64,000 nucleotides of DNA from Vicinamibacterales bacterium (GCA_965116845.1 OZ220728.1:3970309-4034308), one strand, 5' to 3'. Positions 5,171 through 30,677 are shown, counted from the first letter of the stretch. Notes: generated by a model from the sequence alone, not told the origin. Made by a program: numbers and translations.

Positions 5171-6079
5171 TCACCGCGACGTCCGCTGCAGGATCCAGTC
5201 GATGTAGTGCGACACGCGCGTGTAGACGCCGTAGGCCCCCGGCTGGGCACAGCCGCGCCCGAAGCTCACGATCCCAATCTGCGTCCAGCCGGTCGGGCCG
5301 CCCGGCACCACCAGCGGGCCGCCGCTGTCGCCCTGGCACGAGTCCATCGTCCCCTGCGCGTACCCCGCGCACACCTGGCCGTTCTCGATCCGGCCCGGAT
5401 AGATCTCGGCGCACGTCGCGTTGTCGATGATCGGGAGGTCCACCGCGCGCAGCCGGTCCGGCAGGGCGCGACCCTCGCCCCGTTCCCGACCCGGCTCCCA
5501 CGCCTCCACGGTTCCCCAACCCGTCACCACCGAGCACGCCCCCGGGAACCCGAAGTTGGCCTCGAGCTGCCGCGACTGCAGCTGCACCGTCTCCGACCGC
5601 GCGACGGGCAGCGGCGCCGAGAGCCGGACGAGCGCGATGTCGTTGCCCTGGCTCGCCGGCCCGCCGCCCCGGTAGCGCTCGTGCGGGATGAGCCGCTCGG
5701 CCCGGCGGCGCTCCCCGCCCGCCGACAGCGACTGCGAGCCGTGCACGACCGAAAAGGCGTCCGCCCCGCGTAGCCGCCCCCGGCCGTCGTACAGGCAGTG
5801 CGCCGCCGTCAGCACCCACGACGGATGGATCAGCGAGCCGCCGCAGATGTGGCGCCACCCGTCGCGGGCGGCGAACTGCAGCGACACCTGCCACGGCGCC
5901 ATCTCCCGCGGCGCCTCCGTCCCGCCCACGATGCGGCTCACCGTCCGCTTGCCCGGGTCGAGGCACTCGAACTGCGACCGCCCCTGCCCGTGCGCCGCGC
6001 CGGCGCCGAGCACCGACACGAGCCCGAACGCCAGCACCGCACGACCCGGCCGCGAGCCACCCTGCCCCCTGTTGCGCAT
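5171..6079 (-). CDS. Secreted trypsin-like (S1 family) serine protease
   Basis: ATG at 6079 preceded by GGAGA; signal-like N-terminus; RIVGG, LTAAHC (His), NDIALVRL (Asp), CQGDSGGPL (Ser), YTRVSHYIDWI. The upstream 180 aa of the track ORF is R/G-rich and rejected. Confidence 0.92.
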   Translation of the reverse strand: MRNRGQGGSRPGRAVLAFGLVSVLGAGAAHGQGRSQFECLDPGKRTVSRIVGGTEAPREMAPWQVSLQFAARDGWRHICGGSLIHPSWVLTAAHCLYDGRGRLRGADAFSVVHGSQSLSAGGERRRAERLIPHERYRGGGPASQGNDIALVRLSAPLPVARSETVQLQSRQLEANFGFPGACSVVTGWGTVEAWEPGRERGEGRALPDRLRAVDLPIIDNATCAEIYPGRIENGQVCAGYAQGTMDSCQGDSGGPLVVPGGPTGWTQIGIVSFGRGCAQPGAYGVYTRVSHYIDWILQRTSR

Positions 6080-6108
6080 CCGCCGTCTCCTTGCCTTGTG
6101 TCCGTTCC

Positions 6109-6684
6109 TCAATCCACCACGCGGTACTGCAGGTAGCTCGACGCGTAGGGCCGCGGGTCGGGCGCCCGCGTGGCCCGGATCTGCGGGAACGCCGTCTCGT
6201 CGAATTGCAGCTCCTCCCGCCGCGTGTAGTGCAGGTACAGCGATGCCTCGCCCAGTGGCCGCCCCACCTCGAGCCGGAAGCCGTCGTCGTCCCCGATGCA
6301 CGTCTCCTCGCCCGCCGCCACCGCGACCGCCCGCTCGTCCGCCGTCTCCGCCGCGAACTCGTTCGGGTAGATCCGCGCCGGCACGTTCCCCTCGGCGTCG
6401 TGGCTCCACACCGTCACGTAGCCGTCCGCGCTCGACCGGAAGCAGAGCACGACGTGGTCGCCGACCTGCACCGCGCCGTCGGAGCCGACGCCGTCCCGCC
6501 CTCCGCCGGCCCGCCCCAGCGTCTCGAGCTGCAGGTCCAGAGACACCTCGCCGAACCGGTTGTCCGGCTTCACCGTGATGCTGCGCGTCCGGCGCGGCCG
6601 CTGGGCCTCGGCCAGCAGCGGCCACGCCACCGCCTGCAGCACGACGGCCGCCGCGACCGCCGCCCGACAGCAGAGATTCCTCAT
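6109..6684 (-). CDS. Secreted DUF4384-domain protein
   Basis: Signal peptide MRNLCCRAAVAAAVVLQAVAWPLLAEA; core VQVGDHVVLCFRSSADGYVTVWSHDAEGNVPARIYPNEF resembles DUF4384 (GD.v.l.v..s.dGYl.v...d..G....lfPN); GGAGGG RBS. Confidence 0.7.
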   Translation of the reverse strand: MRNLCCRAAVAAAVVLQAVAWPLLAEAQRPRRTRSITVKPDNRFGEVSLDLQLETLGRAGGGRDGVGSDGAVQVGDHVVLCFRSSADGYVTVWSHDAEGNVPARIYPNEFAAETADERAVAVAAGEETCIGDDDGFRLEVGRPLGEASLYLHYTRREELQFDETAFPQIRATRAPDPRPYASSYLQYRVVD

Positions 6685-6730
6685 CTCTCGCCCTCCGTCA
6701 CCTCTGCGATTCGGCGCCCGAGGCCCACCC

Positions 6731-7249
6731 TCAGAACGTCCGCACGATCTCCACCCGCCGCTGCCGGTCGTCGGCCGGCGCGAACGCCGGGAGCAGCCGC
6801 ATCTCCCCGAACCCGGCCGCCCGCAGCCGCGGCGCGGCCACCCCCCGGCGCACCAGGTACGAGACCACCGCCTCCGCCCGCCGCTGCGACAGCCGCAGGT
6901 TGTAGTCGTCGGGGCCGGTGGCGTCGGTGTGCCCCTCGAGCGTCACCTGCGCGGCGACAAGCTGCGGGTCGTTGAGCGCCGCCGCCACCCCGTCGAGGTC
7001 CCGCATCGCCCGCCCTGTAAGGTCCGCCGAGTCGAACCCGAACTCGATCCGCAGCATCAGGCTCACCTCGGACGGCCCCCCCGGGTCGCCCGCATCGTCC
7101 GGCACCACGGCCAGCGAGCGCGTCACCGCCTCCCGCGTCACCGGCCCGTCCAGCGACCGCCGCAGCCGGTCCTGCGCCCACCCCGCATCGGCCGCCACCG
7201 CCACGGCGAGCGTGAGCAGCCCCGTCACCGTCGCCCTCTTGAGCTTCAT
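6731..7249 (-). CDS. OmpA-family (peptidoglycan-associating) protein
   Basis: ATG 7249; signal peptide; IEFGFDSADLT...LEGHTDATGPDDYNLRLSQRRAEAVVSYLV..GV...RL.A.GFGE...RRVEIV is the OmpA C-terminal-like domain. Confidence 0.88.
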   Translation of the reverse strand: MKLKRATVTGLLTLAVAVAADAGWAQDRLRRSLDGPVTREAVTRSLAVVPDDAGDPGGPSEVSLMLRIEFGFDSADLTGRAMRDLDGVAAALNDPQLVAAQVTLEGHTDATGPDDYNLRLSQRRAEAVVSYLVRRGVAAPRLRAAGFGEMRLLPAFAPADDRQRRVEIVRTF

Positions 7250-7274
7250 GGCAGGTCTCCCCTTCCCACGACCG

Positions 7275-8366
7275 CTACTGCACGACGACGAAGCTCGCCG
7301 AGGCGATGGCCGTCCGCTCCCCTGCCGGGTCCGCGACCACGGCCAGGTTCCGGGCCGTCGCGCCGGCATCGTCGAACGTCGCGAACGGGCCGGCCCGGAA
7401 GTCGCCCGGCGCGCCTATCACCGGCCCCGCGCCGGTCCGGCAGAGCGCCGTCACGTGCTCCACCCCCGCCGGCCCCATCGGCACGATCGAGACCGCGGCC
7501 CCGATCCCGGGCACCACCACCGTCTGGCCGGCCCGGATCAGCGTCTGCTGCTGGTAGCGGTTCGGGAACAGCAGCCGGGACGCGCCGCCGGGGGCCGTGT
7601 TGAGCAGCGACAGGTGGCAGTCCGCCTCCGCCTTCACCATCAGCGTCACCGGGTCCGTCACCCGGTACACGGGACGGTCCGCCGCGAGCTCCAGCCCGAA
7701 CGGCGCCGACGGCCAGCCTGCTCCCGCTACCGGCGGCCGCGGCGGCGCGGGTGCCGCCGCGGCGGGCCGTTGCGGCACCGTGCGGATCACCTTGTCGTAG
7801 ACGTCCCACTCGGCCGTCTCCGCCTCCGCCATCACCACGGCCAGGTTCCGCGCCGTCTCCTGCGCACGCTGCCGGATCGTCTGGAAGACGCCCGCCTGCG
7901 CGAGCTGCGCCCCCGCGAACAGCGGCGCCGGACGCGTCGTCGCCACCACCTTGATCAGCTCCGCCCCCGTCGTCCCCGACACCGCGATCCGCGCCCGCGA
8001 CGCCGGGTCCGGCACCTCCGTCACCGTGTTCGCGCGCACCCGGTTGTCGGTCTGGTAGCGGTTCGGGAACAGCACCGTCGTCGACCCGTCCGGGCCCACG
8101 TTGAGCACCGTCACGTAGGCGTCCTTGTTCACCTGCACGAACACGCGCACCTGCTCGCCCTGCGCGTAGGTGTTCGTCGCGTGGTCCACCCACGCCACGA
8201 CGTCGAGCGGGTTCGACGCCGACCCCGGCGGCGGCGCCTGCACCGCCTGGATCGCCGTCTGCTCCACCGTCAGCACCCGCTCGTCCTGCGCCCGCGCCGC
8301 GCTGGCCCCCAGCACCGCCGTCAACGCCAGCACGGCGCCCGCGCGCCCCAGCTTCGTTCGCATCAT
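7275..8366 (-). CDS. Secreted protein with two tandem DUF4384-like domains
   Basis: ATG 8366 (AAGGAGA RBS), signal peptide; two repeats of the pattern YAQGEQVRVFVQVNKDAYVTVLNVGPDGSTTVLFPNRYQ and YRVTDPVTLMVKAEADCHLSLLNTAPGGASRLLFPNRYQ. Confidence 0.75.
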   Translation of the reverse strand: MMRTKLGRAGAVLALTAVLGASAARAQDERVLTVEQTAIQAVQAPPPGSASNPLDVVAWVDHATNTYAQGEQVRVFVQVNKDAYVTVLNVGPDGSTTVLFPNRYQTDNRVRANTVTEVPDPASRARIAVSGTTGAELIKVVATTRPAPLFAGAQLAQAGVFQTIRQRAQETARNLAVVMAEAETAEWDVYDKVIRTVPQRPAAAAPAPPRPPVAGAGWPSAPFGLELAADRPVYRVTDPVTLMVKAEADCHLSLLNTAPGGASRLLFPNRYQQQTLIRAGQTVVVPGIGAAVSIVPMGPAGVEHVTALCRTGAGPVIGAPGDFRAGPFATFDDAGATARNLAVVADPAGERTAIASASFVVVQ

Positions 8367-8449
8367 CCGTCTCCTTGTCCCCTTGAGCCTTCCCCCGCCC
8401 GACGACCGGGCTGGTTGGCGGCCCACTTTCGAAAGACCGCTGTCTCCTG

Positions 8450-9031
8450 CTACTCGACCACCTGCACGCGGGTCTCGGCGACCGCCCACGACGAGGCCGG
8501 CATCTGGGCCGTCGCCCGGTTGAGCCCGCGCAGGAACGTCCCTGCCGTCGACGCCAGGACCATCGGTCGCGTCAGCGTGCTCCCCTGGTTGTCGGCGAAG
8601 CCCACGAACGGCTGCCGCGTCACCAGGAACACCACCCGGTCGACCCCCGCCGGCAGCGACGCCCGGATCACGAGGCCGTCGCCCGCACGCGGATACTCCA
8701 CCTGTGCCCCGGCCGCCACCGGCAGGTTCTCCGCCAGCAGCGTCACCCCGCCGTCCGCGTTGACCAGGTAGAGGTGCCCGAAGCCCGCCTCGCTCGACGA
8801 CACCCGGAAGCCGATCGGCGTCCCCACCGCCACCGGCGGCGCCATCGTCGGCGTGACGCCCACCGCGAACGCCGGGGAGTCGTTCGCCGCCACGTCCACC
8901 CCGCCCGCCCCCACCAGCACGCCGTTCCCCGTCGACCGGCAGCCGGCGGCCGCCACCAGAACCAACGCCGATGCCGCCGCCAGCACGCTGGCCCGGGAGG
9001 TCCCGAACCGCGCCACTCCGTATCCGGTCAT
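8450..9031 (-). CDS. DUF4384-like lipoprotein
   Basis: ATG 9031 overlaps the kinase stop (ATGA); lipobox LVAAAGC; FRVSSSEAGFGHLYLVNADGGVTLLAENLP DUF4384-like core. Confidence 0.7.
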   Translation of the reverse strand: MTGYGVARFGTSRASVLAAASALVLVAAAGCRSTGNGVLVGAGGVDVAANDSPAFAVGVTPTMAPPVAVGTPIGFRVSSSEAGFGHLYLVNADGGVTLLAENLPVAAGAQVEYPRAGDGLVIRASLPAGVDRVVFLVTRQPFVGFADNQGSTLTRPMVLASTAGTFLRGLNRATAQMPASSWAVAETRVQVVE

Positions 9032-11892
9032 TGCTCCGCTCCCCCCGTCTTCCCTTCGGCCCTTGTCCACGCACTGACCGAGGCCGTTGCCGCTGTAGAC
9101 GCCGCGGACCCCGAAACCGGACGCGGATCGATGGTCTCCCCCGCGTGCGCCGCCGATGGGTTCGGGTGGAGCGACAGGGGCGCCGGCGGCAGCGAGTCGG
9201 GGACGAGCGTGCGGACGGCCGCCGCCAACGCGCCCGCCGTCGTCGGCCGGGCGGCGGGCGGCGCGGCCAGCATCTCGCCGGCGAACGACAACACCGCCTC
9301 GACGGCGTCCGCGTCGGCCGCGCCCGAGCGGGCGGCCGGCCGCGTCCGCAGCCGCTGGTTGCGGATGGCGTCGACCATCTCCTCGACCGTCGCGCCCGCG
9401 AACGGGCGCCGGCCCGCCACCGTCTCGTACAGCACCACGCCCAGCGCCCACACGTCGTCCGCCGCCCCCGCCGGCCGCCCGCCGAGCGCCTCCGGCGACA
9501 GGTACGCCACCGTGCCCCCGCCCAACGGCCGGCCGCCCCCGCTGATGTCCGCCAGCCCGAAGTCGAGCAGCTTCGGCGTCCCGCGCGACGTGAACCCGAT
9601 GTTGCTCGGCTTCACGTCCCCGTGCCGGTACCCCGCCGCGTGCAGCGCGTCGAGCGCCTCGGCCACCGCCGTCACCACCCACACCGCCGCCCCCGGCGCC
9701 AGGGGCTCGCCCCCCAGGCGCGCCGCCAGCGTGCCCCCGTCGAGGTGCTCCATCACCAGCAGCGGCCGCCCCCGCCACGTCTCGAGGCTGTGGATCTGGG
9801 CGACCCCCGGGTGCGCCGACGCCGCCATCGCCTGCGCTTCCCGCCGCAACTGCGCCAGGCCCGCCGCCGACACGCCGTCCAGCGTCTTGATCGCCACCAC
9901 CCGGTCCAGCCCGATGTCCCGCGCCCGGTACACCGTCCCCATCCCGCCCGCGCCGATGCGCCGCTCCACCGCCAGCTTGCCCGCCACCAGCACCGGAAGC
10001 GGCGCCTCCGCCCACTCGCCTCCGCACGCGTCGCACCGGGCGCCCGCGTCGACCGCCGACGCGACCCGCCCGCACGCCCCGCACGCCCGGGCCGGCGGAG
10101 CCTCCCCGGTCGACCCGGGCTGCCGCAGCCGCGCGAGCGTCAGGCTCGCCGCCCCCGCCAGCGCCTCCAGGAACGACACGTCCACCGGCCGCAGCCGGGC
10201 GCCGTCCGCCCGGCGACCCACCACCAGGAGGCCGGACAGCGTTGCCCCGGACCCGGCAACCGGCACGACCTGCGCCGCCCCCGTCGCCGTCACCCACGCC
10301 GCCTCGCCCGGCGGCAGCAGCTCGAACGCCGTCTGCCGGCCCTCCGGATCGACCAGGAGCGAGCTGCGGATCTCGGCCAGGACGCCGGCCAGCAGCGATG
10401 CGCGCGGCAGGGGAGCGAGCGTCCCGCCGGGCGCCGCGAACCGCTCCTCGGACGCGTCGAGCGCCGCCAGCATCCCGGCCGGCACCCCGGCGCCCTGCCG
10501 CGCCGCGCGCGCGACCGCCGCCTCGACCTCCGCCGCCTCGGTCGCCTGCCCGAGTTCGCCGCCCGCCGCCGCCAGCGCCCGCCGCTGGTCCGCCGTCTCC
10601 GGCGCCACCCACCCGTCCAGGCTCGCGAGCAGACGCTCCCGCCACGCCAGCGCCACCAGCGCCGCGGCCGCGGCCCCCACGCAACCCTGCGACAGCGGGT
10701 CCGCGAGCACCGCGCGCACCGGCACGTCCGCGCGACTCACCAGCAGCGCCGCCAGCGCCGCCAGCGGCCCCGCCGTCAGCACCGCCAGGCCGCCCCGCGT
10801 CAGCAGCCGTCGCGCCGACACCCGCACCGTCGTCCGCACGTCCAGCACCCGCAGCGCGATCGCCGCATACAGCGTCAGGTACGGGACCGCCAGCGCCGAC
10901 ACGCTCCCCAGCACACTCACCCAGTTCGCCGCGGCCACCGTGACCGTCCCCGGGGAGAACACCTCGACCACCCCTTCGACGTGCGGCGCCAGCGCCGCCG
11001 CAATCCCGCCCACGAACAGCAGTGTCCGCGAACGGTCCTCGCGCGCCACGCCCCCGACGCGCAGCAGCAGGACGGCCAGTCCGGCCAGGAGGAAGAGGCA
11101 GTGCGGGCCGAAGAACGCCGGCGCGATGTAGGCGCCCGGAACCTCCCGCGCCAGCACGCCCAGCGATGGGCTCAGCGCCTGCACCGGCGCCAGGTTCGCC
11201 ACCTGCAGCACGCCGCCCACCCCGGCCGCCAGCAGCGCCATGCGCGTCGCCCAGGCGTCGAGCCGCGTCCCCCGCCGGACCCGCGGGAACTCCCGCACGA
11301 ACAGCCAGAAGACGGCCGGCAGGAAGAGCTCCGGGTAGAGGCCCACGCCGAGACCGCCCGCAACCGGCTGCGCCCAGAACGCGCCGAGCAGCACCAGCAC
11401 CGCCCCCAGCAGCCGCGACCGGCGGTCGAACCGGCCGCCCACGTACAGCACCAGCCCGCACACCGGATACAGAACGTGGGGGACGATGCGCAGCAGGAGC
11501 GCCGCCGGCGACAGGTCCTCCACCGGCAGGAAGCCCCGCGCCGACTCGTCCGGGCCCGCCAGCGCGGCCAGCATCCCCTCGGCCGCCGCCGGCAGCAGCG
11601 CCGCTCCCGTGAACAGCCCGACCGCCGACTCGAGCAGGCCGATGGCGACCAGCACCCCGACCGCGCGCCGCGCGAGCCGCGACTCCCGGCCGTCGCGCCC
11701 GGCCCGTCGGCTCGATGCCACCGCCGCCCCCGCGGTGCGGCAGATCCCCTCCAGCGTGCGGAGCTGCGCCAGCGCGCCCCGCTCGGCAGGGTGGGCGCGC
11801 GACGTGCACCGCTCCCAGTCCACCTCCTGGCCGGCGGCGACCGCATCCGCCACCTCCGGCAACAGCCCGCGTCCCCGCGTCTCGCGACTCAC
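9028..11892 (-). CDS. Polytopic membrane Ser/Thr protein kinase (N-terminal multi-TM region, GAF-like middle region, Cys-rich ribbon, C-terminal kinase)
   Basis: GTG 11892 after GGAGGAG; kinase blocks IGAGGMGTVYRA, VVAIKTL, HGDVKPSNIGF (non-RD), LLDFGLA, YLSPE; Cys cluster CGACGRV..ARCDACG before the kinase; about 8-10 hydrophobic segments; paralog at 59626..62391. Confidence 0.88.
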   Translation of the reverse strand: MSRETRGRGLLPEVADAVAAGQEVDWERCTSRAHPAERGALAQLRTLEGICRTAGAAVASSRRAGRDGRESRLARRAVGVLVAIGLLESAVGLFTGAALLPAAAEGMLAALAGPDESARGFLPVEDLSPAALLLRIVPHVLYPVCGLVLYVGGRFDRRSRLLGAVLVLLGAFWAQPVAGGLGVGLYPELFLPAVFWLFVREFPRVRRGTRLDAWATRMALLAAGVGGVLQVANLAPVQALSPSLGVLAREVPGAYIAPAFFGPHCLFLLAGLAVLLLRVGGVAREDRSRTLLFVGGIAAALAPHVEGVVEVFSPGTVTVAAANWVSVLGSVSALAVPYLTLYAAIALRVLDVRTTVRVSARRLLTRGGLAVLTAGPLAALAALLVSRADVPVRAVLADPLSQGCVGAAAAALVALAWRERLLASLDGWVAPETADQRRALAAAGGELGQATEAAEVEAAVARAARQGAGVPAGMLAALDASEERFAAPGGTLAPLPRASLLAGVLAEIRSSLLVDPEGRQTAFELLPPGEAAWVTATGAAQVVPVAGSGATLSGLLVVGRRADGARLRPVDVSFLEALAGAASLTLARLRQPGSTGEAPPARACGACGRVASAVDAGARCDACGGEWAEAPLPVLVAGKLAVERRIGAGGMGTVYRARDIGLDRVVAIKTLDGVSAAGLAQLRREAQAMAASAHPGVAQIHSLETWRGRPLLVMEHLDGGTLAARLGGEPLAPGAAVWVVTAVAEALDALHAAGYRHGDVKPSNIGFTSRGTPKLLDFGLADISGGGRPLGGGTVAYLSPEALGGRPAGAADDVWALGVVLYETVAGRRPFAGATVEEMVDAIRNQRLRTRPAARSGAADADAVEAVLSFAGEMLAAPPAARPTTAGALAAAVRTLVPDSLPPAPLSLHPNPSAAHAGETIDPRPVSGSAASTAATASVSAWTRAEGKTGGAEQ

Positions 11893-11992
11893 CGTCTCCT
11901 CCTGCCTCGGGTGCCCGCACGCCCCATTGCCGGGAGAAGACGTCTGCCCGCGCCGAACCGGACACGGGGCGCCGGCACCGTGCCGACCTCGC

Positions 11993-12604
11993 TCAGGCGT
12001 CCATCTCCTGCGAGAGACGCACCAAGGCCCGCCGTAGCGCCTTGCGCGCCGCTTCCGCGCTGGCCCGCTCGTCCACCAGCGCCAGTTGCCGGAACGAGTA
12101 CCCCAGCTCGGCACGACCCACGATCAGCCGCCGATCGCGCGCCGTCAGCCGTCCCAGCGCCCGCAGGTAGTGCGCCCAGGACTCCCCGTCGATCGCCTGC
12201 TGCAGCGGGGACGGGCCGCCGGCCGGCAGCTCCTCCCCGTCCAGCTCGTCCTGGGGGCCGCGGCGCACCACGCGCCGCATCTCGTCCCGGATGCGGTGGT
12301 CGACCGCACGCAGGAGGTACGCCCGGAACGCCGCGCTGCTCGTCGACTCGAATCCCGTCAGCCGACGCACCGTGTGCAGCAGGACTTCCTGCACGAGGTC
12401 GCTCGTGTCGGCCACCCCTCGCGCCCAGACCGGCAGCCGCCCCCGCGTCCGACGCCGCAGCCACGGGAACCAACGCGCGAACAGCGCCCCCGCCGCCGAA
12501 CGGTCCCCCCGCCGCGCCCGCGCCAGGAGCTCCGACGACCCGGTCGTCGCCGCCGACTCGGCAGGCTGCCTCCCCGCGTGGGCTCGTCTCTCGTCTCCCG
12601 GCAT
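11993..12604 (-). CDS. ECF-type RNA polymerase sigma factor (kinase-associated type)
   Basis: ATG 12604; region 2 DTSDLVQEVLLHTVRRL and region 4 LTARDRRLIVGRAELGYSFRQLAL; paralog at 62388..63041. Confidence 0.85.
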   Translation of the reverse strand: MPGDERRAHAGRQPAESAATTGSSELLARARRGDRSAAGALFARWFPWLRRRTRGRLPVWARGVADTSDLVQEVLLHTVRRLTGFESTSSAAFRAYLLRAVDHRIRDEMRRVVRRGPQDELDGEELPAGGPSPLQQAIDGESWAHYLRALGRLTARDRRLIVGRAELGYSFRQLALVDERASAEAARKALRRALVRLSQEMDA

Positions 12605-12639
12605 CTCCCTGCCTGTGCGACCCGCCGGGAAGACGACCT

Positions 12640-12870
12640 CTCGTCGATCGAGATCCGCCGAAGGGTGTGCAGCAGCGCGTGCTGCTACAACGTCGCTCGT
12701 CTCGGCGAACCGCCGCGCCCAGCCCGGCAGGCGACCGGGCGCCCGCCGCCGCCACGGGAACTGCCGCGCGAACACCGCGTCGACCGCCGAGCGACCCCCT
12801 GCCGCACCCGCTCGAGCAGCGCCGTGGAGGCGGTCGCCTCAGCCGGCCGACTCGGAATGCCGTCTCCCGG
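12640..12870 (-). pseudogene. Diverged partial duplicate of the sigma-factor N-terminus
   Basis: EATASTALLERVRQG../..AVDAVFARQFPWRRRAPGRLPGWARRFAETSDVV parallels SAATTGSSELLARARRGDRSAAGALFARWFPWLRRRTRGRLPVWARGVADTSDLV of the intact gene; frameshifted and truncated. Confidence 0.55.
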
Positions 12871-12878
12871 TAGACCGT

Positions 12879-12910
12879 CGGAAAGAGGTAAAGAGTTGAA
12901 GATGCAAGAG
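12879..12910 (-). repeat. Conserved AT-rich element directly 3' of the target-gene stop codon (copy 1 of 3)
   Basis: plus-strand cGGAAAGAGGTAAAGAgtTGAAGatgcAAGAG; related copies at 16627..16660 and 20021..20052. Confidence 0.6.
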
Positions 12911-14734: not shown

Positions 14735-14973
14735 CAGCGTTCCTCCTGTTACAACCATCACCCGCACCGCAGCCTTGCTCCGCGGCGCCTGCTCCCCCGC
14801 TCCGGCCGTCACTCGCCGGTCTGCACCGCGAGCGTCGTCCGCCGCACCGAACGGCAGCCGGCGCCCGTCGCCCTCCGCGGTGGGCCAGGACGGGCGCCGG
14901 CCGTGGAGCCGCCGCGGAAGTCCGGCGGCCCCTGCTCAACATGACCGGCCCGGATGGACGCACCCGTGCGCGC

Positions 14974-14997
14974 CCGGCGGGGCCGTGACCCCGCCGG
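14974..14997 (-). other. GC hairpin (9-bp stem, 6-nt loop) just 3' of the TR
   Basis: ccggcgggg ccgtga ccccgccgg; lies 14 nt downstream (minus sense) of the TR end. Confidence 0.6.
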
Positions 14998-15010
14998 CTC
15001 CGGCCGCGGT

Positions 15011-15134
15011 GCGTGCTCGCCACGCGAAAACCGATGTTCGTGTTCCGGTTCTCGGCATCGTTCCTGTTGCGATTCGCCGAACGGAGGTTCCTCGGGTTGT
15101 TGTTCCAGGAACCGCCACGAACCACACGACGACT
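15011..15134 (-). repeat. DGR template repeat (TR)
   Basis: Non-coding copy of the VR starting 9 nt after the RT stop; reads SWNNNPRNLRSANRNRNDAENRNTNIGFRVAS with 9 AAC + 1 AAT codons at the positions that vary in the VRs. Confidence 0.9.
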
Positions 15135-15143
15135 GGGGGCCGG

Positions 15144-16226
15144 TCAGGCCCCCGGGACCGGCCGCCCGCGCGGCGCGAACCACCCGTCCCGGAAGATCGA
15201 GCGGCGCAGACGCCGGGTATCGGCGTGCGCCGCGTGCGCTACCCACGCGCCCACTCGCTGCTCCACCTCCGCCCGCCGCACGCTCCCCGCGCGCCACCGG
15301 TCCCGCAGCCCGCGCAGCCGGCGGCGGAACCGCCGCACGTTCGGCTCCGGCAGCCGCCGGCGGCCCCCGGGCAGCAACACGTACCCGAGGAACTCCGCCG
15401 GCTCCGACGTCCGTGCGATGCGCGTCTTCCGCGGGTGCAACGACAGCCGCCGTCCCGCCAGATACGCGGCCACGCGACCGCGCCAAATCCCGAGCTGCCC
15501 GGCATCGGCGGCGAACAGCGCGAAGTCGTCCACGTAGCGCAGGTACGGCGCCCGCAGCACCTCGGTGACGAAGTGGTCGAACCCGTCGAGGTAGACGTTC
15601 GCGAAGAGCTGGCTCGTCAGGTTCCCGATCGGCAGCCCGCGGCGGCGCTCATAGGGCGTGAACAGGTCGTCGCCGGGATAGTAGTGATGGACCGGCTCCT
15701 GCGGATTCGACCCGTCGATGATCCGGTCGAGCACCGCGAGCGTCCGTCGGCAGGCCACGCGCCGCCGGAGGTCGGCCTTCAGGACTGCGTGGTCGATGGC
15801 CGGGAAGTAGCGCAAGACGTCGCCGCGGAGAACGTAGTCGTGGCGGTCGCGGAAGCGCTCGAACTGACGCACCGCCCGGTGCGTCCCCTTGCCGGTCCGG
15901 TTGGCGTAGCTGTGCGCGATGAAGCCCCGCTCGAACAGCGGCCCCACGACCGCGTGCACGGCGTGGTGCACCACCCGGTCCCGGAACGGCGCCGCCGAAA
16001 CCAGGCGCCGCTTCGGCTCCGTCACCTCGATCTCGACGTAGCGGCCCGGGCGCCAGCTTCCGGCTCGGAGCTCCCGTTCCAGCCGCAGCACCTCCGTCTC
16101 CAGGTTGGCCAGGAACGCCGCCGGCACCGGCGTCCGCCGCTTCCCGGCCACGGCCCGCAAGGCCGCCGGCGCAAGCGCCTCGAACGAGGCGACGGCGTCG
16201 AACAGCCCGTCACGCGCGCGCGGCAT
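15144..16226 (-). CDS. DGR reverse transcriptase
   Basis: 360 aa; IGNLTSQLFANVYL (DGR-type motif 4) and YLRYVDDFALF (YxDD); adjacent to Avd and the TR. Confidence 0.93.
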   Translation of the reverse strand: MPRARDGLFDAVASFEALAPAALRAVAGKRRTPVPAAFLANLETEVLRLERELRAGSWRPGRYVEIEVTEPKRRLVSAAPFRDRVVHHAVHAVVGPLFERGFIAHSYANRTGKGTHRAVRQFERFRDRHDYVLRGDVLRYFPAIDHAVLKADLRRRVACRRTLAVLDRIIDGSNPQEPVHHYYPGDDLFTPYERRRGLPIGNLTSQLFANVYLDGFDHFVTEVLRAPYLRYVDDFALFAADAGQLGIWRGRVAAYLAGRRLSLHPRKTRIARTSEPAEFLGYVLLPGGRRRLPEPNVRRFRRRLRGLRDRWRAGSVRRAEVEQRVGAWVAHAAHADTRRLRRSIFRDGWFAPRGRPVPGA

Positions 16227-16575
16227 CGTGCGCCTGCTGGGTCTTCCGCCAGCCGCCGATCAGCCGGCCCGTCTCGTCGATCGACCGCGCCGCGTGCGCG
16301 TAACGCTGCCCGTCCAGGTGCCGCAGGTCCTTCGCCAGCCGGCACAGGTAGCGCAGCTTCTCGATGCCGAGGTTCGCCGCCGCCAGGTGCGGCCCACGCG
16401 CCCGGGTGTACGTCGCGTCGATCAGCCGCTCCAGCACATCGAGCGCCGTCGCCTGCAGCCGGTCCCCCAGCAGGAACTTCTGGCTCCGCGGGAACCGCTC
16501 CACCGTCGGCACCAGCCACAGCACGAACCGGTACATTGCCTCCAACGCCGGCCCCGTCCGCCGCGCGGCATCCAT
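16210..16575 (-). CDS. avd: Avd-like accessory variability determinant (four-helix-bundle, 23S rRNA-IVS protein family)
   Basis: ATG 16575 after GGAGG; 121 aa, basic and helical (MYRFVLWLVPTVERFPRSQKFLLGDRLQATALDVLERLIDA...); overlaps the RT start by 17 nt. Confidence 0.8.
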   Translation of the reverse strand: MDAARRTGPALEAMYRFVLWLVPTVERFPRSQKFLLGDRLQATALDVLERLIDATYTRARGPHLAAANLGIEKLRYLCRLAKDLRHLDGQRYAHAARSIDETGRLIGGWRKTQQAHDAARA

Positions 16576-16626
16576 CGTCACCTCCGTGCATCTTCCCACC
16601 GCCCGCGTCGCCTGACCGCCCGCGGG

Positions 16627-16660
16627 ACGAAAGAGGTAAGGAGTTGAAGGGACAAAGACC
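16627..16660 (-). repeat. Conserved AT-rich post-stop element (copy 2)
   Basis: acGAAAGAGGTAAGGAgtTGAAGggacAAAGAcc. Confidence 0.55.
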
Positions 16661-18669
16661 TAATCAAGCGTCCTCGCCACGCGAAAACCGATGCGCGCGT
16701 TCCGGGTCTCGGAATCGAAGATGAAGCGATCCGCCGAACGGAGGTCATTCGGGGGAGCACTCCAGGAACCGCCTCGACCCACTCGCCCATTGCAGTTACC
16801 GCCCGTCGTCCACGCCGAGCCGTCGCGCGGGGCCCGCGCGTAGTTCTCGTGCGAGCAGTCCTGGACCCATTCATACACGTTGCCGTGCATGTCGTACAGG
16901 CCCCACGCGTTCGCCGCGAACGAGCCCGTCGGCGCCGTCCGATTCGCGTCGTCCCAGCGGCCCTGACGACCCGCACAGTTCGCTCGGCTGCGGCCGCTGT
17001 CGTCGCCCCAGGTGTACCGCGTCGTCGTCCCCGCGCGCACCGCGTACTCCCACTCCGACTCGCTCGGCAGCCGGTACTCGTCCCCCGTCTCCTCCGAGAG
17101 CCACGCCGCATACGCCGTCGCGTCCTCCCACGACACGTTGATCACCGGGCGCCCCCCGCGGCCCCAGCCCTCGTCGCCGGGCCGTTCCCGGCCCGTCGCC
17201 GCCGCGAAGCCGTCGTATTCCTCGAACGTCACCTCGTACACCCCCAGAGCGAACGACGGCACCTCCACCTCGTGCACCGGGACCTCGTCGTCCTCGCAGT
17301 CGCGTCCCGACACGCAGCCCATCCGGAAGCGACCCGCCGGGATGACCACCAGCTCCGGGCACTCCGGGCAGTCCCGGAACACCTCTCCCGGCTCCCGGGC
17401 CCGAGGCGGGTCCACGACGGCGGGGGCGGGCGCCGCCTCGCGCAGCACCGCCAGCCGGTTCGCCGCCAGCGGCGCGTAGATCCCGCTCGGCCAGCGCGCC
17501 AGGTACGCCTCGAAGTCGGCCGCGTTCGTGCTGTCCCGCATCGACTCCCAGAAGACCGTCTCCGCCCGGGTCAGCTCCGCCACCGGCACGCTCGCCGTCG
17601 CCGGTGGCGCCGCTACGGGGGCCGGGACCGTGGCCGGCGGCGAGGGGGCGGCGGCGGAGAGGGCGGCGGCCGGCACCGGCGCCCCCAGAGCGGCCGCGCC
17701 CACCGCGTCCAGGTACCCGGTCGCCGAAGCGTCCCGCGACGTCTGCCAGCCCCGGATGGCCGCCCGCGTCGCCGGACCGAACACCCCGTCCGCCGGCCCC
17801 GGCGAGAACCCCGCCCGCGTCAGCCCCTGCTGCACCAGCCGCCGCGACGCACGGTCCAGGCCCAGGGCCGCCTCCACCGCGCGCGGCTCCACGCCCGTCG
17901 CCGCGCGCAGGTAGTGCTCCCCCAGCAGCGACGCATACTCGTGCGGGCGCTGACGCCCCTCCGTCGACTCCAGCACCCGCGCCCGAACCTCGCGGAACAG
18001 CAACCCGAGCTCCAGCGGCTGCTCCAGGTACGACAGCAACGCCGACGTGTACGGGCTGTTCCGCCCCGTCCCGTCGTCCGCCGTCGTCCCCGCCGCCGCC
18101 GCATACGCCACCAGCGTCTCGTCCCCCAGCAACGCTTCGTTCAGGTCCCCGAAGCTCCCCCGGCTCACGTTGCGCGACGCCCCCGTCCGCTGCATCGACC
18201 GGGCCAGCGGGTTGTTCCGGCACGCGTCCAGGATCACCACCCGCAGGTCCGCGCCCACCGTCGACGCCAGCACGTCGTCCAGCACCACCGCCTCGAACCG
18301 CACGTCCGTGTCCCGCTCCAGACGCGCGTCGACGGGGACGAGGTAGTTCACGCCGTCCATCTCCAGGCCGTGCCCCGCGTAGAACACCAGGGACACGTCC
18401 GCCCCCGCGCTCTCCCGCGTGAACACCCGCAACGCCTCGGTCATCGCCGCCCGGTCCGCGTCCCGCACCGTCGTCACCTCGAACCCGATGCGGCGCAGCG
18501 CCGCCGTCATGTCCGCCGCGTCGTTCCCCGGGTTCGGCAGCGGCCCGATGTGCGCATACGTGCCGTTGCCCACCACCAGGGCCACCCGGCCGGCGGCGAA
18601 CGCGTCCGGCGGCGACGCCACCAGAACGACCGCCAGCAGCAAGAGGGCGCCGAGCTTCGCAGATCGCAT
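16660..18669 (-). CDS. DGR target 2: exported caspase - peptidoglycan-binding domain - FGE/C-type-lectin fusion
   Basis: ATG 18669; signal peptide MRSAKLGALLLLAVVLVASPPDAFAA; FYAGHGLE / ILDACRNNP; PG_binding_1-like GPADGVFGPATRAAIRGWQ; FGE domain as in target 1; C-terminal VR. Confidence 0.92.
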   Translation of the reverse strand: MRSAKLGALLLLAVVLVASPPDAFAAGRVALVVGNGTYAHIGPLPNPGNDAADMTAALRRIGFEVTTVRDADRAAMTEALRVFTRESAGADVSLVFYAGHGLEMDGVNYLVPVDARLERDTDVRFEAVVLDDVLASTVGADLRVVILDACRNNPLARSMQRTGASRNVSRGSFGDLNEALLGDETLVAYAAAAGTTADDGTGRNSPYTSALLSYLEQPLELGLLFREVRARVLESTEGRQRPHEYASLLGEHYLRAATGVEPRAVEAALGLDRASRRLVQQGLTRAGFSPGPADGVFGPATRAAIRGWQTSRDASATGYLDAVGAAALGAPVPAAALSAAAPSPPATVPAPVAAPPATASVPVAELTRAETVFWESMRDSTNAADFEAYLARWPSGIYAPLAANRLAVLREAAPAPAVVDPPRAREPGEVFRDCPECPELVVIPAGRFRMGCVSGRDCEDDEVPVHEVEVPSFALGVYEVTFEEYDGFAAATGRERPGDEGWGRGGRPVINVSWEDATAYAAWLSEETGDEYRLPSESEWEYAVRAGTTTRYTWGDDSGRSRANCAGRQGRWDDANRTAPTGSFAANAWGLYDMHGNVYEWVQDCSHENYARAPRDGSAWTTGGNCNGRVGRGGSWSAPPNDLRSADRFIFDSETRNARIGFRVARTLD
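16668..16791 (-). repeat. DGR variable region VR2 (more diverged)
   Basis: Same 124-nt register as the TR; many A-site changes, plus non-adenine differences (for example TR AGG vs ATC, GCC vs TCC, GTT vs GGT). Confidence 0.75.
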
Positions 18670-18774
18670 TCTTCCCCTCCCCGTTGCGTCGACGCTCTCA
18701 GAGGAACGCCGTCTCGTCAGTGGTGGCCGCGCCCCGTTTCGAGAGGCCGTCATCGGGACGTCTGTTCCAGGATT

Positions 18775-18830
18775 CCAGTCGATGTAGTACGAGACGCGCG
18801 CCCACCTGTGCGCACCCGCGGCCGAGTTCC
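18775..18830 (-). pseudogene. Short 3' remnant of a trypsin-like protease gene
   Basis: ccagtcgatgtagtacgagacgcgcgcccacctg... reads RVSYYIDW, homologous to the end of 5171..6079 and to 22255..22870. Confidence 0.6.
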
Positions 18831-19090
18831 GGGTTCTTGTCGCGATTCCGTAGCGGACAACGGAGCCCGGTCCGTCAGGACATCGGCGCTGCACGGAGAG
18901 CTTCGAGCGTGGTCAACCGGTGCACCCGGCCGCTCTCGTATGCTGCGCAACCGGACCCATCAACGAACATGGTCGGCATTTCTTGGTGGTTGTCAAGGGT
19001 ACGGCCAGACGGTGTTTCCGCCTTCTTCTACCAATTCGATGGAGCGCGGAAAGCTATATGCCGCAGATTCGGGGTCCGGCTCCCAGAGTC

Positions 19091-19107
19091 ACTACCAATT
19101 AGGTAGT
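19091..19107. promoter_or_regulatory. Palindrome ACTACC-N5-GGTAGT, conserved in three cassette copies
   Basis: actaccaattaggtagt; a half-site ctaccaat lies about 65 nt upstream; copies at 23223..23237 and 29843..29858. Confidence 0.4.
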
Positions 19108-19204
19108 CACAAGAACGGTTGGAGCATCGGGCTGGAAACACGGGCCGAGCGTGCACCCGCGTGCCGTACGAGCTGCTGCGGTCGGTCCCGGCGCCGAAGT
19201 AATG

Positions 19205-19925
19205 AGGCGGGTAACCGGCATTGGGCGAGCACTACGCGTTCGGCGGCATCCTGGCCTCGTTGCACGACGTCATGCTCGGCGATGCCCGCTGGCCATGCTG
19301 TTCCGGACCGGAGGCCAGGACAGCCTGAACCCCCGGCTCGACGGGCCGGACGGCTCCTTCATCACCTGAGGACCTCCGAGACCCCGTCGACGCGGACGGC
19401 TGGGGGGTGTCGCGGATCGCATGGGTCACGAATCTGCTGCCCCACATCCGGCAGTGGCGTCCGTGTCCGGCAGGCGCTCGTACGGGCCGAGGCGCGGCAC
19501 ACGACCGGTCACGGCCCTGCTCGACAACCCGCGGGTCGGCGTCCTCCCACCTGGACCGGCGCGGGCCCGTCCTCGCCGCCAACGAACGCGCCCGACGCAT
19601 CCTCCGGAACGGCGACGGGCTGACGGACCGGGGACGGGATGCTCCCGCACGACGGCCGACCAGGCCCGGCTCGAGCGGATGGTGGGCGACGCGCTGCCGG
19701 GCTCCGGACGGGCTGCGGTCAGCGGGTCGATGCGGCTCCGCCGCTCGCCCGTGTTGCCGCCGTTCGTCGTACACGTCAAGCCCGTGCGCGGCCCGCAGCC
19801 CGACTACGGCGCGCGCCATGTCGCCGCGCTCGTGCTGGTCGTCGAGCCGGGGCGCCAGCATCGCCTCGATCCCGAGCGGGTCGCCACGACGCTCGAGCGG
19901 ACACCGGCGGAGGCTCAGGAGCACG
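19205..19925 (+). pseudogene. Regulator-like pseudogene (copy A), frameshifted with the C-terminus missing
   Basis: Segments GEHYAFGGILASLHDVML / MLFRTGGQDSLNPRLDGPDGSFIT* / TALLDNPRVG / DQARLERMVGDALPGSGRAAVSGSMRLRRSPVLPPFVVHVKPV...AALVLVVEPGRQHRLDPERVATTL in different frames. From memory this resembles the sensory part of a LuxR-type regulator family; no HTH is present. Confidence 0.35.
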
Positions 19926-20020
19926 AACCGGTCACATCGCCTCCAGTGCCGGCCCCGTCCGCCGCGCCGCGTCCCCCGGTCACCTCCCGCTGTGCCCTGG
20001 GGGCTCCGCCCCCAGACCCC

Positions 20021-20052
20021 CGGAAAGAGGTAAAGACCTGAAGAAGAAAGAA
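20021..20052 (-). repeat. Conserved AT-rich post-stop element (copy 3)
   Basis: cGGAAAGAGGTAAAGAccTGAAGaagaAAGAAc. Confidence 0.55.
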
Positions 20053-22158
20053 CTAATCCAGCGTCCTCGCCACGCGAAAACCGATGACCGCGTGCCGGAG
20101 CTCGGCATCGACCCTGCTGCGAAGCGCCGAACGGAGGCTCCTCGGGTTGTCGATCCAGGAACCGCCACGAACCACACGACGACCGCAGTCTCCGCCGCGC
20201 GTCCAGGAGGAGCCGTCGCGGGGAGCACCGTCGTAGTCGTCGTGCCAGCAGTCCTCCACCCATTCCCACACGTTGCCCAGCACGTCGTGCAGCCCGAATG
20301 CGTTCGGGCGATAGGCGCCCACCGGCGACGTCCAGAGAACGCCGTCCGTGCAGTCAGCCACCGTCCAGTTGTCGAAGCGCGCCTCGAACGTCCTGTCTGC
20401 ACCGTTGGCGTACGCGCACCCGTCGTCCGGGTCGTCTCCCCAGTGCCGGCGCGTCGTCGTCCCCGCCCGCGCCGCGTACTCCCACTCTGCCTCGCTCGGC
20501 AGCCGGTACTCCTCCCCGGTCTCCGCGCTCAGCCACTGCACGTACGACTGCGCATCTTCCCAGTTCACGCACACCGCCGGATGGTCCCCGGCTTGCGGAT
20601 ACCCCGGGGAGCGCCACGACGCCTCCGAACGCCACTCCCAGCGCCTCTCGTCGGCGTCGAACGCGTAGCACCGGTCGCCCGCGCCGCGACCCGTCGCCGC
20701 CACAAACGCGGCGTACTCGTCCCGCGTCACCTCGTGCACGCCCAGCGCGAAGCGGTCGACCATCACCCGGTGCCGCGGCCGCTCCAAGTCGTAGCTCTCG
20801 TCGTCCCGCCGGTCCGACCCCATCAGGAACTCGCCCCCCGGCACGATCACCATCTCCGGGCAGGTCGGGCAGTCGCGGAACACCTCTCCTGGCTCCCGCG
20901 ACCGAGGCGGGTCTACCAGCGCCGGCGGGGCGCTCGCGGCCTCGCGCAGCGCCGCAAGGCGGTTCGTCGCCAGCGGCGCGTAGATCCCGCTCGGCCAACG
21001 CGCCAGGTACGCCTCGAAGTCGGACGCGTTCGTGCTGTCCCGCATCGACTCCCAGAAGAGCATCTCCGCCCGGGTCAGCTCCGCCGCCGGCACGCTCGCC
21101 GCCGCCAGCGGCGCCGACACGTCGGCCGGCGAGGTGGCCACGGTCGACAGGGCGGCAGACGGCACCGGCGCCCCCAGCGCCGCAGCCCCCGCAACGTCCA
21201 GATAGCCCGTCGCCGTCGCGCCCCGCGACGTCTGCCAGCCCCGGATCGCCGCCCGCGTCGCCGGACCGAACACTCCGTCCGCCGGGCCCGGCGAGAACCC
21301 CGCCCGCGTCAGCCCCTGCTGCGCCAGACGCCGCGACGCACGGTCCAGGCCCAGGGCCGCCTCCACCGCCCGCGGCTCCGCGCCCACCGCCGCCCGCAGG
21401 TAGTGCTCGCCCAGCAGCGACGCGTACTCGTGCGGACGCTGACGCCCCGCCGTCGCCTCCAGCACGCGCGCCCGCACCTCCCGGAACAGCAACCCGAGCT
21501 CCAGCGGCTGCTCCAGGTACGACAGCAGCGCCGACGTGTACGGGCTGTTCCGCCCCGTCCCGTCGTCCGCCGTCGTCCCCGCCGCCGCCGCATACGCCAC
21601 CAGCGTCTCGTCCCCCAGCAACGATTCGTCCAGGTTCCCGAAGCTCCCCCGGCTCACGCTCCGAGACGCACCCGTGCGTTGCATCGAACGGGCGAGCGGG
21701 TTGTTCCGGCACGCGTCCAGGATCACCACCCGCAGGTCGGCGCCCGTCGTCGACGCCAGCACGTCGTCCAGCTCGATCGCCTCGAACCGCACGTCCGTGT
21801 CCCGTTCCAGCCGCGCGTCGACTGGGACCAGGTAGTTCACCCCGTCCATCTCCAGGCCGTGACCCGCGTAGAACACCAGGGACACGTCCGCCCCCGCGCT
21901 CTCGCGCGTGAAGACCCGCAGCGCCTCCGCCAGCGCGTTCCGGTCCGCATCCCGGACCGTCGTCACGTCGAACCCGAGGCGGCGCAGCGCCGCCGTCATG
22001 TCCGCCGCGTCGTTCCCCGGGTTCGGCAGCGGCCCGATGTGCGCATACGTGCCGTTGCCCACCACCAGCGCCACCCGGCCGGCGGCGAAGGCGCCCGGCG
22101 GCGACGCCACCAGAACGAACGCCAGCAGCCAGAGGGCGCCGAGCTTCGCAAATCGCAT
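20053..22158 (-). CDS. DGR target 3: exported caspase - peptidoglycan-binding domain - FGE/C-type-lectin fusion (divergent FGE scaffold)
   Basis: Signal peptide MRFAKLGALWLLAFVLVASPPGAFAA; caspase and PG-binding parts nearly identical to target 2; different FGE scaffold (FALGVHEVTRDEYAAF, HPAVCVNWEDAQSY, LGNVWEWVEDCW); C-terminal VR. Confidence 0.92.
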   Translation of the reverse strand: MRFAKLGALWLLAFVLVASPPGAFAAGRVALVVGNGTYAHIGPLPNPGNDAADMTAALRRLGFDVTTVRDADRNALAEALRVFTRESAGADVSLVFYAGHGLEMDGVNYLVPVDARLERDTDVRFEAIELDDVLASTTGADLRVVILDACRNNPLARSMQRTGASRSVSRGSFGNLDESLLGDETLVAYAAAAGTTADDGTGRNSPYTSALLSYLEQPLELGLLFREVRARVLEATAGRQRPHEYASLLGEHYLRAAVGAEPRAVEAALGLDRASRRLAQQGLTRAGFSPGPADGVFGPATRAAIRGWQTSRGATATGYLDVAGAAALGAPVPSAALSTVATSPADVSAPLAAASVPAAELTRAEMLFWESMRDSTNASDFEAYLARWPSGIYAPLATNRLAALREAASAPPALVDPPRSREPGEVFRDCPTCPEMVIVPGGEFLMGSDRRDDESYDLERPRHRVMVDRFALGVHEVTRDEYAAFVAATGRGAGDRCYAFDADERRWEWRSEASWRSPGYPQAGDHPAVCVNWEDAQSYVQWLSAETGEEYRLPSEAEWEYAARAGTTTRRHWGDDPDDGCAYANGADRTFEARFDNWTVADCTDGVLWTSPVGAYRPNAFGLHDVLGNVWEWVEDCWHDDYDGAPRDGSSWTRGGDCGRRVVRGGSWIDNPRSLRSALRSRVDAELRHAVIGFRVARTLD
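20061..20184 (-). repeat. DGR variable region VR3
   Basis: By hand about 15 substitutions vs the TR, all at TR adenines (coding strand) apart from the G/C switch in the last 5 nt. Confidence 0.9.
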
Positions 22159-22254
22159 TCTTCCCCTCCCAGTTGCGTCGACGCTCTCGGAGGAACGCCG
22201 TCTCGTCAGTGGTGGCCGCGCTCGTTCGAGAGGCCGTCATCGGGACGTCTGTTC

Positions 22255-23222: not shown

Positions 23223-23237
23223 CTACCGATTTGGTAG
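23223..23237. promoter_or_regulatory. Palindrome CTACC-N5-GGTAG (copy 2)
   Basis: ctaccgatttggtag in the duplicated leader block. Confidence 0.35.
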
Positions 23238-30590: not shown

Positions 30591-30677
30591 GCTTGCGGCT
30601 CACAGGTCGAGCTTGTCACCGATGGTCCCAGGGGTAAGATGCGCGCCGGGAGGTGGAGTGACCGGACTGAGACCCGC

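Follow-up and report, generated by a model that had tools for sequence, protein, structure and literature searches.

A 64,000-nucleotide (nt) stretch of DNA from a Vicinamibacterales bacterium (GCA_965116845.1 OZ220728.1:3970309-4034308), referred to here as the window, contains 13 intact genes running from position 22158 down to 5171, all on the minus strand, which join a diversity-generating retroelement (DGR) and its target genes to genes for an extracytoplasmic function (ECF)-like sigma factor, a membrane Ser/Thr kinase, DUF4384 proteins, an OmpA-like protein and a trypsin-like protease. These 17 kb probably represent one conserved, modular cell-envelope system of a Vicinamibacterales-like clade of Acidobacteriota, into which the DGR has been recruited. 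The core of the proposed system would have three parts: a regulatory pair of ECF-type sigma factor and multi-pass membrane Ser/Thr kinase; at least three putatively exported DUF4384 beta-sandwich proteins with an OmpA-like candidate wall anchor and a trypsin-like protease; and at least one putatively exported C14 caspase-like protease, whose C-terminal binding domain is here of the FGE/C-type-lectin (CLec) type. In some related loci the caspase C-terminal domain is DUF4384 or TPR instead. A preliminary description of the window, made from its sequence, had proposed a single envelope system of this kind, and the related loci described below support that proposal.

Genes were called from third-position GC (GC3 frame) and Shine-Dalgarno-like motifs in a window whose GC content is 62–78%, and the products were checked against Pfam and NCBIfam. 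The cluster begins with two DGR target genes for predicted exported proteins, T3 (20053–22158; caspase C14, PG_binding_1 and FGE-sulfatase domains, Pfam 5.6e-37, 2.1e-14 and 9.6e-65) and T2 (16660–18669; caspase, PG_binding_1 and FGE/CLec domains by Pfam). They are followed by the DGR accessory protein Avd (16210–16578; Pfam bAvd 1.2e-17), the DGR reverse transcriptase (RT; 15144–16226; Pfam RVT_1, YVDD motif), the AAC-codon-rich template region (TR; 15011–15133, 123 nt, recognized from a four-copy repeat family, alignment and a codon view) and the target T1 (12911–14734; caspase and FGE/CLec domains, Pfam 1.2e-35 and 5.7e-61), predicted to be membrane-anchored or exported. The remaining genes encode the ECF-like sigma factor of 203 amino acids (11993–12604; Pfam Sigma70_r2), the multi-pass membrane Ser/Thr kinase of 954 amino acids (9028–11892; Pfam Pkinase 4.2e-39), a DUF4384 lipoprotein (8450–9031; Pfam DUF4384 1.5e-8, 35 bits against a cutoff of 27, lipobox-like VAAAGC), and four predicted exported products, namely a protein with two DUF4384 stretches (2xDUF4384; 7275–8366; Pfam 1.3e-42), an OmpA-like peptidoglycan-binding protein (6731–7249; Pfam OmpA 6.4e-21), a single-DUF4384 protein (6109–6684; Pfam 1.4e-11) and a trypsin-like S1 serine protease (5171–6079; Pfam Trypsin 1.8e-56). 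From sigma to trypsin the gaps are 100, -4, 83, 25, 46 and 29 nt, the negative value being an ATGA overlap of the kinase stop codon with the start of the DUF4384 lipoprotein gene; wider gaps separate T3 from T2 (1383 nt), TR from T1 (276 nt) and T1 from sigma (306 nt). Signal-peptide-like or lipobox-like N-termini were recognized, by hydropathy and by eye rather than with a dedicated predictor, in T1–T3 and in every product after the kinase. The gene order, the shared strand and the predicted export of all post-kinase products given in the preliminary description therefore stand.

Support for treating these genes as a unit comes from their recurrence. The kinase, the closest RT relatives and the 2xDUF4384 protein served as anchors for retrieving neighborhoods, onto which the window proteins were mapped by tblastn. 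Eight longer homologous loci were found in this way to carry the gene set at 55–95% protein identity with the order rearranged; all belong to assemblies of related Acidobacteriota. Using S for sigma, K for kinase, D for DUF4384, 2D for double DUF4384, O for OmpA, P for trypsin and T for caspase-FGE, the loci read: L001, T / S K D 2D O D P / T Avd RT TR T; L088, K D 2D O D P / T Avd RT TR T; L100, S K / T Avd RT TR / D 2D O D P / T, C14-Trypsin_2; L086, T (avd relic) D 2D D (trypsin relic) / S K / T (avd relic) / D 2D O D P; L085, T (Avd, RT and TR relics) ... / S K 2D Ank D O D D, C14-DUF4384, C14-TPR, P; L002, T ... T / S K D D 2D O D P Ank P; L087, S K 2D Ank P D O D D, C14-DUF4384, C14-TPR; and L101, D ? 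O P 2D D D T IS110 (Avd and RT relics) T T. Caspase genes lie beside the DUF4384/OmpA/trypsin genes in 8/8 loci, caspase-FGE genes are present in 7/8, and the sigma gene was seen in 6/8. Three loci (L001, L088 and L100) have a DGR with a TR and adenine-mutated variable regions (VRs) and three further loci (L085, L086 and L101) have Avd/RT/TR relics, which makes a DGR or relic in 6/8; no DGR was found within 10 kb in L002 and L087, where the module and caspases are present. The DGR is a frequent add-on, not an obligatory part of the module. Sigma–kinase–DUF4384 operons are therefore found near DGRs and caspase-FGE genes beyond the window, and the neighborhood conservation that the preliminary description asked about is seen for caspases, caspase-FGE genes and the DGR or its relics.

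The position of the DGR varies: in the window it lies upstream of sigma, two loci have it downstream of trypsin, and in L100 it is found within the operon, between the kinase and DUF4384 genes. Because the related loci differ in arrangement, the window order, with the DGR upstream of sigma, is a rearranged version of the same module. All three T genes of L001 have adenine-mutated VRs, so that DGR targets flank the operon on both sides, and the VR of the target upstream of sigma matches a TR 11.4 kb away, across the operon. The closest RT (89%) is found in L088, and caspase-FGE genes orthologous to T1 lie directly upstream of sigma in L001 and L002. Pairwise domain fusions in the related loci (C14-FGE, C14-DUF4384, C14-Trypsin_2 and Pkinase-FGE) tie the parts of the module further together. 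Pkinase-DUF4384 or Pkinase-FGE fusions are also known from the literature, and the earlier remark that DUF4384 is often fused to caspase or kinase domains agrees with both sources. At larger distances, a metagenome scan with the 2xDUF4384 alignment returned only 8 loci; distant 2xDUF4384 loci from other metagenomes (37–46% identity) carry C14, C14-FGE, DUF4384-C14 and Pkinase-FGE genes. Since these again have caspase genes, the link between DUF4384 and caspases is wider than the link to sigma.

Several further features of the related loci were observed. The junction of the kinase and DUF4384-lipoprotein genes looks like an insertion hot spot: two metagenome contigs (L092 and L093) whose 2xDUF4384 and OmpA genes are 98–99% identical to those of the window have a C14-only caspase gene there, where the window has the ATGA overlap, and caspase-FGE genes (plus DGR) occupy the same junction in L086 and L100. 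The L100 module is on a 321-kb contig whose name suffix 'c' may mark circularity, and it may be carried on a large plasmid. ParA and integrase genes adjoin the module in L101. The RT of L001 is without amino acids 229–276, and sigma, OmpA and two target genes of this locus are split (19699–20528, 9276–9883, 14717–15234, 17120–19269 and 20859–22765), which could reflect either decay or frameshift errors of long reads.

The DGR is of the canonical type, with RT and Avd, adenine-specific differences between TR and VRs, and targets that end in FGE/CLec domains. Avd matches the NCBIfam model DivGenRetAVD at 101.6 bits (cutoff 80), and its gene overlaps that of RT by 17 nt. Three VR copies of TR, one each at the 3′ end of T1, T2 and T3 and on the same minus strand, bear the signature of DGR activity. 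VR1 (12919–13041) is 85% identical to TR with 16/19 mismatches at TR adenines, VR3 (20061–20183) is 88% identical with 14/15, and VR2 (16668–16790), the most diverged of the three, is 76% identical with 15/29. The mismatches are located in AAC codons of the target reading frame, and each VR stops 8 nt short of the end of the stop codon, within the FGE-sulfatase domain. All three targets have the caspase His (YAGHG) and Cys (LDACR) motifs, with Peptidase_C14 E-values from 1e-35 to 1e-37. DGRs are, to our knowledge, the only known dedicated protein-hypermutation machines of bacteria, and for most chromosomal DGRs we know of no established ligand of the variable protein or of any event that follows binding. 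In one further locus (L091, 1–11300), an RT relative at 82% identity diversifies Pkinase-(PG_binding)-FGE proteins in a cluster that also has FHA, PP2C, MotA/ExbB and Trypsin_2-PG_binding-FHA genes, which makes up another, distinct signaling module linked to a DGR in related bacteria.

Canonical ECFs have a DAED motif in region 2.2, and ECF43-type sigmas are without it, being switched on when a neighboring Hanks-type kinase phosphorylates a Thr there, as in the STTA motif of phosphorylated EcfP (PMC8999054); kinase-associated ECF groups are typically without anti-sigma factors (PMC7826278). The sigma factor of the window scores 42.7 bits against the NCBIfam sigma70-ECF model, whose cutoff is 42.9, and its length fits the ECF type, which has regions 2 and 4 only. 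Its region 2.2 has D-T-S-D at the DAED position, where D66 and D69 are conserved in all aligned orthologues and Thr67 is nearly invariant, and the motif is kept down to the kinase group of 44% identity. The kinase has a conserved N-terminal cytoplasmic segment of ~75 amino acids, about nine hydrophobic segments with short loops at amino acids 77–385 (by hydropathy), a GAF-like region, supported by weak precomputed GAF matches in homologues, a CxxC..CxxC zinc-ribbon-like motif and a C-terminal kinase domain with VAIK, HGD and DFG motifs, and almost no periplasmic domain. No match to the sensor region was returned by a PDB sequence search or a relaxed Pfam scan. Full-length orthologues number ~50 at 63–94% identity in Acidobacteriota assemblies, in addition to a group at 40–46%, and the sensor part matches 796 clusters (50% identity clustering). 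The sigma and kinase genes are neighbors in the window, L001, L002, L085, L086, L087 and L100, in L003 and L004 too, and for roughly half of the full-length homologues of the kinase at larger distance. No anti-sigma Pfam domain was found within the cluster. A search for a shared -35/-10-like dyad upstream of seven sigma orthologues gave nothing above shuffled controls, and in alignments of the intergenic region between T and sigma homology is restricted to a stretch just past the target stop codon.

The sigma/kinase family is broad, and the association with caspase, DUF4384, OmpA and trypsin genes marks one clade of it. A paralogous pair lies elsewhere in the window, with an ECF-like sigma at 62388–63098 (minus strand, 50% identical) and a multi-pass Ser/Thr kinase at 59626–62400 (minus strand, 31% identical over its full length); small unknown genes and transposases follow it, with no DUF4384 or caspase genes among them.

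For the 2xDUF4384 protein, 351 relatives were found, with invariant Cys250 and Cys309, a pair that is compatible with a disulphide and therefore with export; the AlphaFold model (predicted local distance difference test score, pLDDT, 78.7) shows the DUF4384 domains as immunoglobulin (Ig)-like beta-sandwiches. NCBIfam matches of the OmpA-like protein to Pal, YiaD and similar models are all under the cutoffs. The trypsin-like protease has TAAHC, DIAL and GDSGGP motifs, and its catalytic triad is kept.

From these features we infer the following pathway. The kinase would most likely activate sigma by phosphorylating the conserved Thr or Ser in D-T-S-D, as in the ECF43 type, and sigma would then probably drive the adjacent genes. 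The DGR (Avd, RT and TR) would rewrite the ligand-binding face of the caspase-lectins, producing several envelope proteases of hypervariable specificity, and these could bind a range of ligands at the cell wall and act together with the trypsin-like protease and the DUF4384 proteins. The likeliest role would be to recognize variable ligands, external or periplasmic, and to couple this to proteolysis, with phage, predator, competitor and host surfaces as candidates; assignment to defense, antagonism or host interaction is a guess. Two observations provide hints to role only: the anti-predator and envelope-stress roles of the ECF43 type, and predicted exported ankyrin-repeat proteins of ~290 amino acids inside the module in three loci (L085 14247–15101, L087 14164–15045 and L002 17553–18428), which the window does not have. 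Signals may flow either way, with the proteases as output of sigma or feeding back to the kinase, and the sequence is compatible with both.

Several observations weigh against the proposed system and should be taken into account. Co-transcription, the operon itself and the regulon are putative: no promoter was detected in a scan of 4300–23800 that is uninformative in a genome of 70–78% GC, terminator-like sites in the same range are no commoner than in shuffled sequences, and no shared sigma-dependent motif was found. Sigma retains both Asp of the region 2.2 motif and is not a clean ECF43-type factor. The kinase homologues at 40–46% identity keep the sigma neighbor, usually without the caspase/DUF4384/OmpA/trypsin cargo, and the paralogous pair in the window (59.6–63.1 kb) has different downstream genes. 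The Foldseek matches of the 2xDUF4384 model were all generic, of Ig-like, macroglobulin-like (MG-like) and arrestin-like type (TM ~0.2–0.3), and gave no functional clue. Close RT relatives have unrelated targets too (L089, where the target is FGE only, and L091). Finally, the naive Fisher tests against 64 control loci (p ~1e-10 when caspases are counted and ~4e-6 when a DGR or relic is) overstate significance, as the module loci all come from related uncultured Acidobacteriota and provide few independent observations; L085 and L086 are from one genome, and L001, L002 and L100 are from one sample.

The control set comprised 80 other Acidobacteriota kinase loci from a scan of genome contigs with the kinase alignment, and because the scan patterns were taken from the kinase domain it consists mostly of generic or distant kinases, with the close clade missed. 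None of the 80 has a caspase or Avd (0/80), and an FGE match was found in only one. More persuasive than the p-values is that the linkage survives at least three arrangements and repeated DGR decay, and on these comparisons the linkage of the DGR and caspases with the operon is not due to chance. A chance co-orientation of unrelated genes without functional meaning, to which the commonness of co-directional gene runs in bacteria and a linkage known from sequence alone could lend some weight, is very improbable given the same gene set, rearranged, in eight other loci.

Among the alternatives with more to recommend them, the first accepts a single system and gives it a direction. Caspase-lectin receptors would bind ligand, the caspase, possibly in a cascade with trypsin, would cleave DUF4384 proteins, and the kinase would sense the product and phosphorylate sigma. 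There is a precedent in the type III-E CRISPR systems, where the caspase-like protease Csx29 cuts Csx30, a protein that binds an ECF sigma (RpoE) and in some cases has a DUF4384 C-terminal domain. The C14-DUF4384 and C14-Trypsin_2 fusions of the related loci point the same way, as do the Pkinase-FGE DGR targets of related bacteria, in which lectin sensing is coupled to kinase signaling, and a kinase with almost no periplasmic domain would need partners in order to sense outside events. However, the cleavage and sensing steps are purely proposed, operons of ECF sigmas encode output more often than input, and the caspase genes lie on either side of the operon or inside it, with no fixed relation to the kinase. 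We therefore consider this directed relay unlikely. A more far-reaching reading would make the cluster an extracytoplasmic, adaptive-immunity-like surveillance system, in which wall-anchored, DGR-diversified caspase-lectins serve as pattern receptors, proteolysis of DUF4384 'bait' with trypsin as cascade partner is read by the kinase, and sigma is switched on by phosphorylation. This is a speculative scheme to which we give little credence. If true, it would represent an envelope counterpart of the Craspase caspase-to-sigma switch combined with receptor diversification resembling somatic hypermutation.

It is also conceivable that two separate units merely travel together in a recombination-prone island rich in insertion sequences (IS), one being sigma/kinase with its cargo and the other an independent DGR with caspase-lectins. 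The region is indeed IS-rich and full of gene fragments, and two of the module loci are without a DGR. The RT clade is highly mobile as well: about 8000 RT relatives were found, those listed being 68–89% identical and spread over several phyla, and because close RT relatives serve other targets the DGR cassette is modular and not dedicated. On the other hand, caspase genes accompany the module in all eight loci, including the two that have no DGR, and distant DUF4384 clusters also have caspase-FGE genes, in contrast to the lack of any caspase or Avd in the controls. The arrangements through which the linkage survives include a DGR between the kinase and DUF4384 genes and targets on both flanks of the operon. 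Two independent units thus seem a doubtful explanation, and a single modular system with a recruited DGR is the reading that we prefer.

The proposed system shares components with several known ones. DGRs with orthocaspase-CLec variable proteins have been described in cyanobacteria (Vallota-Eastman et al., 2020; PMC7517822), and the element described here resembles them in its Avd, RT and TR, in adenine mutagenesis of a C-terminal FGE/CLec domain, in the caspase-like N-terminal peptidase of the target and in having multiple targets per element. It differs in that the targets have predicted signal peptides and peptidoglycan-binding domains and in that they form part of a conserved operon which also encodes an ECF sigma, a membrane kinase, DUF4384 proteins, OmpA and trypsin; a word search of that paper gave no passage on neighboring sigma factors. 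Kinase-activated ECFs such as EcfP/PknT of Vibrio parahaemolyticus and EcfK/PknS of Xanthomonas citri control envelope or anti-predator responses (PMC8999054, PMC13147305, PMC7826278). As in the ECF43 type, the sigma gene adjoins that of a Hanks-type kinase of the membrane, the vicinity gave no anti-sigma domain, and a conserved Thr and Ser are present in the RNA polymerase-contacting region 2.2 motif. Unlike in that type, the motif is D-T-S-D with acidic ends and not STTA, a GAF-like region and a zinc ribbon accompany about nine hydrophobic segments in the kinase, and the cargo consists of caspases, DUF4384 proteins, trypsin and a DGR.

Type III-E Craspase (Cas7-11, Csx29, Csx30, Csx31 and RpoE; bioRxiv 10.1101/2022.08.17.504292, PMC10028731) likewise brings together a caspase-like protease, a DUF4384-containing partner (some Csx30) and an ECF sigma in one locus. 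Craspase is cytoplasmic and RNA-guided, whereas the DUF4384 proteins and caspases here look exported, and it is a kinase, not Csx30/Csx31, that adjoins sigma; a Pfam search found no Cas or CHAT-TPR genes within the cluster. The NTPase-centered conflict systems with DGR-diversified FGS domains (Kaur, Burroughs, Iyer and Aravind, 2020/2021; PMC7159879, PMC8195603) are similar in combining DGR-diversified FGE/lectin domains with caspase or trypsin peptidases and kinases in variable, paralogue-rich loci, and a neighborhood of caspase and ECF sigma, EACC2, has been described among them. They are based on MoxR-vWA, STAND or GTPase proteins and mostly intracellular, in contrast to the predicted exported proteins here, and no MoxR AAA+ ATPase, vWA or STAND NTPase domain was found in the genes from 5171 to 22158, the nearest ATPase being encoded outside the cluster at 32898–35414. 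PADLOC matched no catalogued defense system and gave only generic kinase, RT and caspase matches. A description of the combined gene set was not found in the literature searched, the coverage of which is incomplete, and within these limits the earlier statement that no described system of this composition was known continues to hold.

What is new is the conserved composite module and not a new molecular principle; by sequence, sigma and kinase are similar to the ECFs already known to be activated by kinases, and the caspase-lectin DGR target is also of a known type. The variable proteins of this DGR are proteases, and the conserved module to which they belong has a recognizable pair of regulators and a defined set of predicted exported partners. 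The surroundings of a DGR target thereby become a concrete pathway that can be tested. The widespread domain DUF4384, whose function is unknown, gains a context as a recurrent, predicted exported partner of caspase-like proteases, in parallel to Csx30. The kinase-activated ECF sigmas may also extend to a large Acidobacteriota family of ~800 sequence clusters, the signals and outputs of which are unstudied.

The surroundings of the cluster bear traces of rearrangement. As the preliminary description had observed, remnants of a protease gene lie directly upstream of T2 and T3. The one upstream of T3 (22234–22739, minus strand) is a 3′ remnant of the trypsin gene, with 22234–22700 being 79% identical to 5168–5649 by blastn and a frame-broken tblastn match to amino acids 121–302 of the protease. 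Upstream of T2, a short trypsin remnant (18747–18800) and a repeat of ~470 nt, here called repeat X (18824–19294), together occupy 18747–19294 on the minus strand (85% and 91% in the self-blast). A copy of repeat X, 91% identical, is found at 22954–23422, which places the repeat upstream of each trypsin remnant, and the overlapping open reading frames scanned gave no protein family. Since repeat X has two copies and a 5′ remnant of avd follows T3 (19920–20014, matching 16520–16629), the unit consisting of repeat X, trypsin remnant, target and avd 5′ end has undergone a segmental duplication. An unrelated, second decayed protease was considered as the source of the remnants and rejected, as they are homologous to the trypsin gene of the operon itself and agree with the order trypsin, target, Avd in L001, L088 and L100. 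The remnants before T2 and T3 are a footprint of the commoner order trypsin, target, Avd, RT. Between T1 and sigma, a partial duplicate of the sigma 5′ region (12665–12868, minus strand; 75% identical to 12372–12574, tblastn to sigma amino acids 36–71) is a scar of rearrangement.

Decayed pieces of the module litter the DNA upstream of the cluster, with caspase gene fragments at 29294–29575 (minus strand) and 30681–31324 (plus strand) and a 490-nt segment at 30107–30592 that is 91% identical to 19295–19781. The ATPase gene at 32898–35414 (minus strand) encodes an 838-amino-acid SMC_N/AAA_23 protein with weak PADLOC matches to mad3, LmuB, GajA and PtuA-type defense ATPases, and may be a defense gene of the same variable region. 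The window is unusually IS-rich, with five transposase genes at 1644–2753, 3074–4339, 47543–48823, 51693–52835 and 54684–55961 (two IS110, one rve/Mu-like, one DDE_Tnp_1 and one Mutator). The two IS110 genes follow the cluster at 1.6–4.3 kb, and IS110 is reached 830 nt past the trypsin gene, at the place where the relatives have a caspase-FGE target.

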